DNA of 62,427 nt, filler included, from Sluysia triapertura (lineage: Eukaryota): assembly GCA_046118255.1 (NCBI GenBank). It is 5 parts of 5 records of this genome, joined end to end, with 100 filler letters (N's around TTAATTAATTAA, not from the genome) between each part and the next. Parts side by side here need not be neighbours in the genome. Positions count along the whole stretch, not along the records: positions 25,324 to 39,780 come from JBJNIA010258515.1; 4 more parts are not named here. One strand, given 5' to 3'. Within the stretch, counting starts at the first letter, position 1. Every line of letters begins with the position of its first letter. The translations under genes were made by a program, and so were the position numbers. Positions 25,400 through 27,179 of the stretch are shown in pieces. The notes beneath the pieces were generated by a model. That model was not told where the DNA came from. It saw only the letters and a list, made by a program, of their open reading frames with translations, and did no database searches.

Positions 25400-26775
25400 G
25401 GTGTTACTAATGATTTAGGGACAACTGTTTTCCATTCATCTTTTGAATTTCTAAATCTAAGTATTCAATTAGTGATTGCTAATCTTTTTGATTTACTTTC
25501 AATTAAGGTTCCCTTTGCTAACGAGTCTATAATATAAGCAATATCCTTATCCTCTCTTTGATTTTTAATGATTTCTTTGGTATCCTGTACTTTACCTGAT
25601 ATTGACATTATTTGTATAAAATTAATATTTCCTTTGTAATTTAAGCGTGACATACAATCTGCACCATTATTTTGAGAACCTGGTTTATAGATAACTTCCA
25701 AATGAAACTCTGCTAACTTATCAAACCGTCTACTTTATCTGCTGACCTCATCCCTATGATTATGCAAATATGTCAGCGGTTTGTGATCGGTATATAAATA
25801 AACTTTCTGTCATAATAAATAATGTCTAAGTAATTTGCACGCGTACAATATGGCTAAACATTCTCTTTCAATTGTTGAGTAATTCATTTCAGCTTTATTC
25901 AAGCCTCGACTAGCATATGCAATTACTGCTTCTAAATTACTTTTGTCCTAAAATTGCACCTATAGCATAATTACTAGCATCGGTAGTTAATATAAATGGT
26001 TTATTAATATCTGGAAAAATTAATGTTGGTGCCGTAGTTAATCGTTCTTTTAGTTTTAGTTTGTTCGTCTGTCCACTTAAATTCGACGTTTTTCCTTGTT
26101 AACTTCCTGAGAGGTTGTTCTATCTTAGCAGAATTTTTAACGAATCTTCTATAATAATTAGCTAATCCTGAAAAACTTTGAATCTTTTCACATTGCCTGG
26201 TTGTGGAAATTTTACTATTTTTTAATGTTTCTGGGATAGGGCTTTATTCCATCTTTTGATACTATGTGTCCTAAAAATGCAACTTTTTCCTCGGCCGAAA
26301 CGCATTTGGTTGGTTTAATTTTTAACCTAGCTATTTCTATTCTATTTAAAATATTGTCAATATCTTTTATGTGTGTATCGAAATCTTTAGAAAATAATAT
26401 TATGTTATCAATGTATACCATAACATTATTGCATCCTGAGAGTACAAAATTCATGCAGCTCTGGAAAGTTGCAGGAGCACCAGTTAGTCCGAATGGCATA
26501 TTTTCACATTCATATAGTTCATAGCCACAAATGAATGAGGTTTTATGTTTATCTTTTTCAGCAATTTCGATATGCCAATAAGCGCTTTGTAAATCAAGAG
26601 TTGTAAAGTATGCGGCGTTTCCTAATTTGTCCATCATTTCATCTATCCGTGGTAGAGGGAAATACGTCCTTCCTTGTTATATTGTTTAGTTCCCTAAAGT
26701 CTATAAAGAAGCTCATTGTTGCATCTTTTTTCTTGACTAACAGAACTGGAGATGAGAATGGTGAGAATGGTCGGT
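25400..26775 (-). mobile_element. Ty3/Gypsy pol (RT + RNase H + start of the integrase region), decayed
   Basis: [52 protein letters not shown] (YxDD broken); FLGH. RNase H: TDAS, IAYASR, YSTIEKECLA, TDHKPL, YKPGSQNNGADCMSR. Several frameshifts. Confidence 0.95.
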
Positions 26776-27179
26776 TTCAAATGCTTCTCTGCACTGATTA
26801 GGTAATATCTTAAATGGTTTAAGTACATTAGATAACTCTATTATGGACGAATGACTATGGTGACCGCGACTGATAGTTTTACCCTACTATCCATTATTAG
26901 AGTCGTCATTAGATTAACCTCTTTATAGACACTAATTACTTTAATATCTTTTACTTGTATTCGGTTCGGCATTTATTAAGGGCAGTCTTCCATATTTAGT
27001 AATGAAAATTTTCTGCCTATTTGTGGCTGGCTACAGTTAAATGTCTTTATCGCGTTAGTTGGATTTATTCCAAACATTGCTAATAGTATTATGATAAACA
27101 GTATATTATTTGTCGAATTACCTATTCTTGGTCTTGCATTATTTAATATGTTACCATTGTTGCCGATTAATTGTTTCAT
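26775..27179 (-). pseudogene. N-terminal part of an envelope glycoprotein, chuvirus-G/gB-like, truncated and joined to RT
   Basis: Signal peptide ILFIIILLAMFGINPTNA, then IKTFNCSQPQ..FSLLNMEDCP**; after a frameshift RGHHSHSSII (26845-26868; cf. CGxHSHxS) and QCREAFET. Confidence 0.75.

Follow-up and report, generated by a model that had tools for sequence, protein, structure and literature searches.

A defective Ty3/gypsy element of Sluysia triapertura with a gB-type envelope stump abutting its reverse transcriptase

The window, meaning the whole 62,427-nucleotide stretch of Sluysia triapertura DNA that was analysed, contains a dead copy of a Ty3/gypsy element in which the stump of a gB-type envelope (env) gene abuts the reverse transcriptase (RT). 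It is very probable that the join arose in this copy, most likely through an internal deletion of about 2.8 kb that took the rest of env and the protease, and that the native order of the element is gag, an accessory domain (probably Bcl-2-like), env, protease, RT, RNase H and integrase. This order was read from two metagenome proteins, P0007 and P0123, together with the fragments in the window and a contig of read run X1, and not from an intact host copy. The features of the element are collected in Table 1.

Table 1. Retroelement features in the analysed contig piece, in window coordinates
Feature	Position	Strand	Remarks
RT connection and RNase H, frameshifted	25408–26234	-	tblastn of P0007, P0123 and others
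Ty3/gypsy reverse transcriptase	26215–26767	-	PF00078, E 1.2e-25; frameshifted once near 26660; YxDD site reads YIDN
env-RT junction	26765–26780	-	frames differ across the join; relative to P0123, about 930 codons (2.8 kb) absent
gB-type (PF24664) envelope, N-terminal stump	26773–27179	-	signal peptide and about 95–110 residues; two stops, one frameshift near 26870
Bcl-2-like, C-terminal half	27151–27435	-	BH2-type WIENQGGW motif; 94 stop-free codons
Possible Bcl-2-like N-terminal half	27417–27629	-	frame differs from C-terminal half; by eye
Gag-like (capsid N-terminal part), decayed	28771–29052	-	motif-level; probably continues to about 28300
env C-terminal membrane region	31162–31383	+	PF24664 positions 541–611 of 653, E 9.7e-8, above cut-off
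Tandem pair of retropepsin-like domains immediately following env	31601–32212	+	protein and Pfam matches

The whole window is AT-rich (GC 19–30%) and consists of contig pieces joined by four identical 100-base linkers, N-TTAATTAATTAA-N, at positions 11742, 25224, 39781 and 51227; neighbourhoods across the linkers are therefore meaningless. The piece analysed here, 25324–39780, holds both the env-RT join and a second retroelement fragment. The minus strand of the neighbouring contig piece has parts of a cysteine-rich, GLG1-type Golgi glycoprotein (PF00839) at 22570–23939, and on the plus strand at 56081–56152 a short stretch weakly resembles the core motif of an integrase (E 0.044), possibly another retroelement scrap.

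In the minus-strand translation, a Met at position 27179 is followed by a hydrophobic signal-like stretch, whose best 11-residue Kyte-Doolittle mean is 3.5. The motifs FNCSQP and FSLLNMEDCP share one frame after this stretch and are followed by two stop codons, GHHSHSS...CREAFET occupies 26868–26773 in a second frame, and the RT start motif appears in a third frame from about 26773. Every element of the peptide quoted in the preliminary description, from the signal peptide to the RT start, is thus present in the sequence; the env peptide itself is composed of two frame pieces with two stop codons rather than of one continuous reading. In the profile search that had been proposed for it, the first piece weakly matches positions 3–58 of PF24664 (Monjiviricetes_fusion) with an E value of 0.039, below the curated cut-off, and the second piece has no Pfam match. 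A tblastn search of the whole window with residues 13–75 of P0123, a full PF24664 member, finds the stump with E values of 2e-4 to 6e-4. The first piece aligns to P0123 with a score of 90, which none of 1,000 shuffles reaches, and the two pieces joined with an X at the break align to residues 13–109 with a score of 98 (0 of 1,000 shuffles; best shuffle 55); the second-best of the 123 proteins compared scores only 49. For the second piece alone, shuffles equal or beat the score in 362 and 105 of 1,000 cases. Based on these comparisons, it is sound at the sequence level to read the stump as the N-terminal part of a class III fusion glycoprotein of the gB/chuvirus type.

The 32 residues that precede the junction can also be aligned by eye, without gaps, to supplement rows of Chary & Hayashi (PMC13524379), with 14 of 32 positions identical in Smed_errantivirus_6 and 11 of 32 in Smed_errantivirus_1. 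This likeness, judged by eye, makes a flatworm host probable. A word-seeded protein search with the stump as query yielded none among 102 candidates, and the env relatives were reached through the RT search and cluster members, not through env queries. The preliminary description had placed the peptide near chuvirus glycoproteins and those of BEL/Pao elements. The gB/chuvirus type of the protein stands, but the closest env relatives found are retroelement envelopes, and neither chuvirus nor BEL/Pao. This bears on the reading that the peptide is a fragment of an integrated chuvirus glycoprotein, in which case an endogenous viral element would have inserted into a gypsy element and the peptide would not be the element's own env. 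PF24664 groups fusion proteins of negative-strand RNA viruses, and solo insertions of chuvirus glycoproteins are known in mosquitoes (PMC7642597); nevertheless, the matches found are to retroelement envelopes (P0123, and Smed errantiviruses by eye), the stump follows a tentative Bcl-2-like domain, the position of env in Burro (PMC6431247), and the domain searches saw no nucleoprotein or polymerase piece nearby. We regard such an origin as so improbable as to be negligible.

The RT and RNase H are collinear with RT-RNase H-integrase polyproteins of the gypsy type, and the element leaves the contig piece at 25324, before the integrase. A protein search with the RT gave 383 proteins at E ≤ 1e-20; among the 120 listed, the eight closest share 55–64% identity with the window RT, and the ten closest relatives scanned all have gypsy-type domains. 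Pao families are absent from the precomputed domains of the 120 listed relatives, and the RT is of the gypsy and not of the BEL/Pao type. In a quick tree of 121 rows, the window RT and P0007 fall in one clade of 13 rows with an SH-aLRT value of 99. The sister of the window RT is P0001, a 289-residue fragment showing no upstream genes. In five of the 12 other members (P0002, P0003, P0004, P0006 and P0012) the ORF contains no gB env, and PF24664 occurs in one of the 120 relatives listed, which indicates that env is not universal in the clade. The RT phylogeny that had been suggested as a check groups the window RT with the env-first P0007 and also with these five members. Searches with P0007 returned no related loci in viral contigs, and P0008 found seven loci in metagenome contigs at only 38–42% identity.

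The full layout is seen in P0123, a cluster mate of P0007, itself found by the RT search. This protein of 2,226 residues comprises, in one reading frame, a PF24664 envelope (3–641, E 5e-101), a protease (741–829), RT (1052–1210), RNase H and integrase. The window env and RT both match P0123 in the same order and orientation, with env upstream of pol on the same strand, as in P0007 and P0123. In the second fragment, env is likewise followed by protease, and one X1 contig, in a table that gives sense but not order, joins RT (26459) to the env C-terminus (31368), with both parts facing the same way in the element. The layout of P0007 and P0123 and their RT clade, the second fragment and this contig argue for env-first as the native order, and the proposal that env lies natively between gag and pol is borne out by them.

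A fusion of two elements has to be weighed against this reading. The 5' half, with gag, accessory domain and env, would then come from one family and the RT from another, brought together by recombination or by insertion followed by deletion. The abrupt, out-of-frame env-RT join and the five of 12 clade members without gB env in the ORF would suit such a hybrid. On the other hand, both sides of the join match a single protein, P0123, in one order and orientation, and neither an LTR nor a target duplication was seen at the join among the largest direct-repeat families listed. A hybrid would, moreover, still have required a donor with env first, of which examples are known. We consider a fusion unlikely. 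An LTR-like pair was also not found among the 20 largest of 44 direct-repeat families, and the 3' end of the element is cut by the contig end.

With the env-first order taken as native, the gap in the window copy can be measured against P0123. Between the end of the match to the stump and the RT motif, P0123 has 931 residues, corresponding to most of env, the protease and the pre-RT linker, that have no counterpart in the window copy. An internal deletion is the simplest reading of this absence, so that the loss of most of env and the protease, as originally suggested, holds for this copy, which judging from its sequence is most likely internally deleted. The position of the breakpoint is uncertain by about 10 bases. 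Since env and RT are joined in different frames, the copy makes no env-RT fusion protein, and the stops and frameshifts mark it as dead.

The junction could alternatively be an artefact of a repeat-rich short-read assembly. The assembly is fragmented, as the four linkers within 62 kb show, X1 contains the element in highly repeated form, and position 26773 is bridged by none of the X1 rows listed (8 pieces out of about 13,200 and 15 joints out of 157). However, the junction sits 1.45 kb inside the contig piece, away from the linker at 25224–25323, its two sides share no long repeat, and the X1 contigs contain many other internal skips of this element family, from which deleted copies look common. 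Even an artefact would leave the reading of the family's gene order unchanged, and we judge it very unlikely.

Run X1 accounts for 24% of the words sampled and is possibly the source sample; the comparison with it also bears on the abundance of the family. At 80% likeness, a level at which depth in AT-rich DNA does not equal copy number, summed contig depth is 7,600–158,000 over 25324–29145 and 4,000–22,600 over 31057–33240, and 160–725 over the cassette and RagC region. The high values indicate that both retroelement fragments are repeats; the repeat depth ends near 29145. For the second fragment, one X1 contig has a depth of 2,398 versus 12 for the contig that is identical to the flank, a hint of multiple near-identical copies of the family. 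Among the read runs that share sampled words with the window, no RNA run is listed.

Between the two retroelement fragments lies an intronless, frameshifted copy of a RagC/D-type GTPase gene (29709–31063, plus strand; PF04670, E 1.7e-11 and 5.1e-10). Up to 13 diverged X1 contigs lie on it, and it therefore looks like a multi-copy pseudogene or captured cargo. Just ahead of this copy, at 29630–29687, a perfect palindrome of 16 bases is found, with an exact copy of one half 49 bases further on.

The second fragment, in which RT is absent, supplies parts that are missing from the first. Its env C-terminal region is 36% identical over 74 residues to P0007/P0123, and a word-seeded protein search with this region as query yielded none among 675 candidates. 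The first of the two retropepsin-like domains matches the protease of P0007, P0008 and P0123 (E 0.005–0.008), and the second matches PF13975 (E 2.6e-6) and P0012 (E 3e-8). The distance from the env C-terminus to the protease is 169 codons, compared with 233 residues in P0123, in the same order. Because P0012 has its protease after the integrase, env followed by protease in this fragment alone does not place env before RT. Two protease stretches also occur in the relative P0006, and a narrow literature search found no report of tandem proteases in gypsy elements.

After the proteases, coding-like pieces extend over 32580–33322 on the plus strand, one of them with a signal-peptide-like start, and are repeated in X1; the ORF pieces 32580–32942 and 33086–33322 have no Pfam match. 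In six relatives from the same RT clade (P0002, P0003, P0004, P0006, P0012 and, through its cluster mate, P0123), the integrase is followed in frame by an extension that combines a signal-like stretch with a hydrophobic end; it is Ig-like in P0123 and contains ankyrin repeats in P0012. As counterparts of these membrane domains, the two ORF pieces did not score above shuffles (best 7 of 200), and this identification was rejected.

Upstream of env, the gag-like region has no Pfam gag match. Its eight best alignments among the 123 proteins cover the same part of the query with scores of 50–57, in the range of shuffled queries (44–58), and the three best show one common motif upstream of pol; at this level of sequence likeness, a gag identity is suggestive only. 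The accessory domain that had been proposed between gag and env corresponds to a Bcl-2-like region at 27629–27151, with match values below significance. The C-terminal half matches PF00452 with an E value of 0.013, below the cut-off. BAX and BOK make up three of its 10 PDB sequence rows (best E 0.75), and entries of the Bcl-2 family 10 of the 20 Foldseek rows listed, all with E ≥ 2. Its ORF has no match among 1.84 billion representatives and none in the Atlas, and no Bcl-2 chain is found among the best 50 VIA-align rows; a single-sequence model (pLDDT 60) has four helices. Ahead of it, a BH4/BH3-like pattern, which we take to be a possible Bcl-2 N-terminal half, has no Pfam match and no Bcl-2 chain among five PDB rows. 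A Bcl-2-like nature of the domain preceding env is tentative, and its odds are raised by a position that is exactly that of BCL2 in Burro. The gag-like and Bcl-2-like parts lie about 1.1–1.4 kb apart, and about 0.7–1 kb of sequence between the two regions is unassigned. Three frames of 27600–28600 gave no Pfam match and no MATH, SUMO-like, BIR or ankyrin module, and a ubiquitin/SUMO-like reading of 27640–27900 was dropped, since the domain searches lent it no support.

By analogy with P0123 and the published families, intact members of the family would make one or two long translation products that cover gag, the accessory domain, env and pol. The env part would be threaded into the endoplasmic reticulum by its internal signal sequence and anchored near its C-terminus, while the element's own protease would release the enzymes from the polyprotein. 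Particles could then bud enveloped, and the class III fusogen could let them pass between cells. The deletion in the window copy may have occurred by template jumping during reverse transcription or by later DNA loss. The description of the lineage as potentially infectious does not apply to this copy, which is broken throughout by stops, frameshifts and the gap. Such a dead, deleted copy cannot be used to ask about infectivity, or how an internal membrane protein leaves a gag-env-pol polyprotein.

A structural comparison with published elements places the window element in a known class. According to excerpts of Chary & Hayashi (eLife 2026; PMC13524379), errantiviruses of Nematoda, Bryozoa and Platyhelminthes bear only ENV proteins of the HSV/gB type, in the order GAG-ENV-POL; nine flatworm elements, for example Smed_errantivirus_1–6, are listed among these "ancient errantiviruses", and the word "Bcl" is absent from the main text. 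The window element has in common with them a Ty3/gypsy RT and a gB-type (class III) env that lies upstream of pol and after a gag-like region, the env type being indicated by the alignment of the stump to P0123 and by the env C-terminus of the second fragment. By eye, Smed_errantivirus_6 has the same env motif, GHHSHS.IIE, and the same distance from it to the following Cys. By contrast, the window copy is deleted and frameshifted, with no LTR-like pair among the largest direct-repeat families and no integrase in the window, and its stops, frameshifts and gap in place of an intact ORF identify it as a defective derivative. Judged by env type and gene order, and not by tree placement, it is a defective member of the GAG-ENV-POL errantiviruses with gB-type env. 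The env-before-pol layout is real, but earlier work already describes it in gypsy elements of flatworms, nematodes and bryozoans (PMC13524379) and in Burro (PMC6431247), and an order unusual enough to define a new lineage is not supported.

Chuvirus-like glycoproteins are also carried by the Anakin BEL/Pao elements of mosquitoes (excerpts of Dezordi et al. 2020; PMC7642597), and the glycoprotein of mosquito BEL/Pao elements has been found beside gypsy POL as well (PMC13524379). Anakin resembles the window element in having such a glycoprotein inside an LTR retrotransposon, but it belongs to BEL/Pao and to insect hosts, whereas the window RT relatives examined are all of the gypsy type. Among the proteins, P0007/P0123 share 56% RT identity and the RT clade (P0123 through its cluster mate) with the window element and have a PF24664 env directly before protease, RT, RNase H and integrase in one ORF. 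P0123 differs in that the env signal peptide forms its start, a single protease is present and an Ig-like domain follows the integrase.

The planarian Burro/GYPSM1 elements, described in excerpts of Arkhipova & Yushenova (2019; PMC6431247), are giant gypsy elements with the order gag ... BCL2-env-PR-RT, and decayed fragments containing stops and frameshifts have been reported for another planarian. The window element resembles the Burro elements in a tentative BCL2-env-PR order and in an env located between a gag-like part and pol. The Burro ORF1 of about 4,900–5,100 residues, with MATH, SUMO-like, BIR and ankyrin modules, has no equivalent in the window; further deletions could explain the small size of the window element. 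The env class may also differ, as the review likens the Burro env to gypsy Env and mononegavirus fusion proteins. It is conceivable, if rather doubtful, that the host harbours a compact, still-expanding relative of Burro, with gag, a Bcl-2-like domain without the canonical BH1 NWGR, gB-type env and two tandem proteases in one polyprotein; the two proteases could work together as a single-chain dimer, and infected stem cells could be kept alive by the Bcl-2-like domain once it is released. Taken with the published elements, the window adds one more host to the known class of env-before-pol gypsy elements with an envelope, and gives a hint that much smaller elements can contain the Burro cassette of Bcl-2, env and protease.
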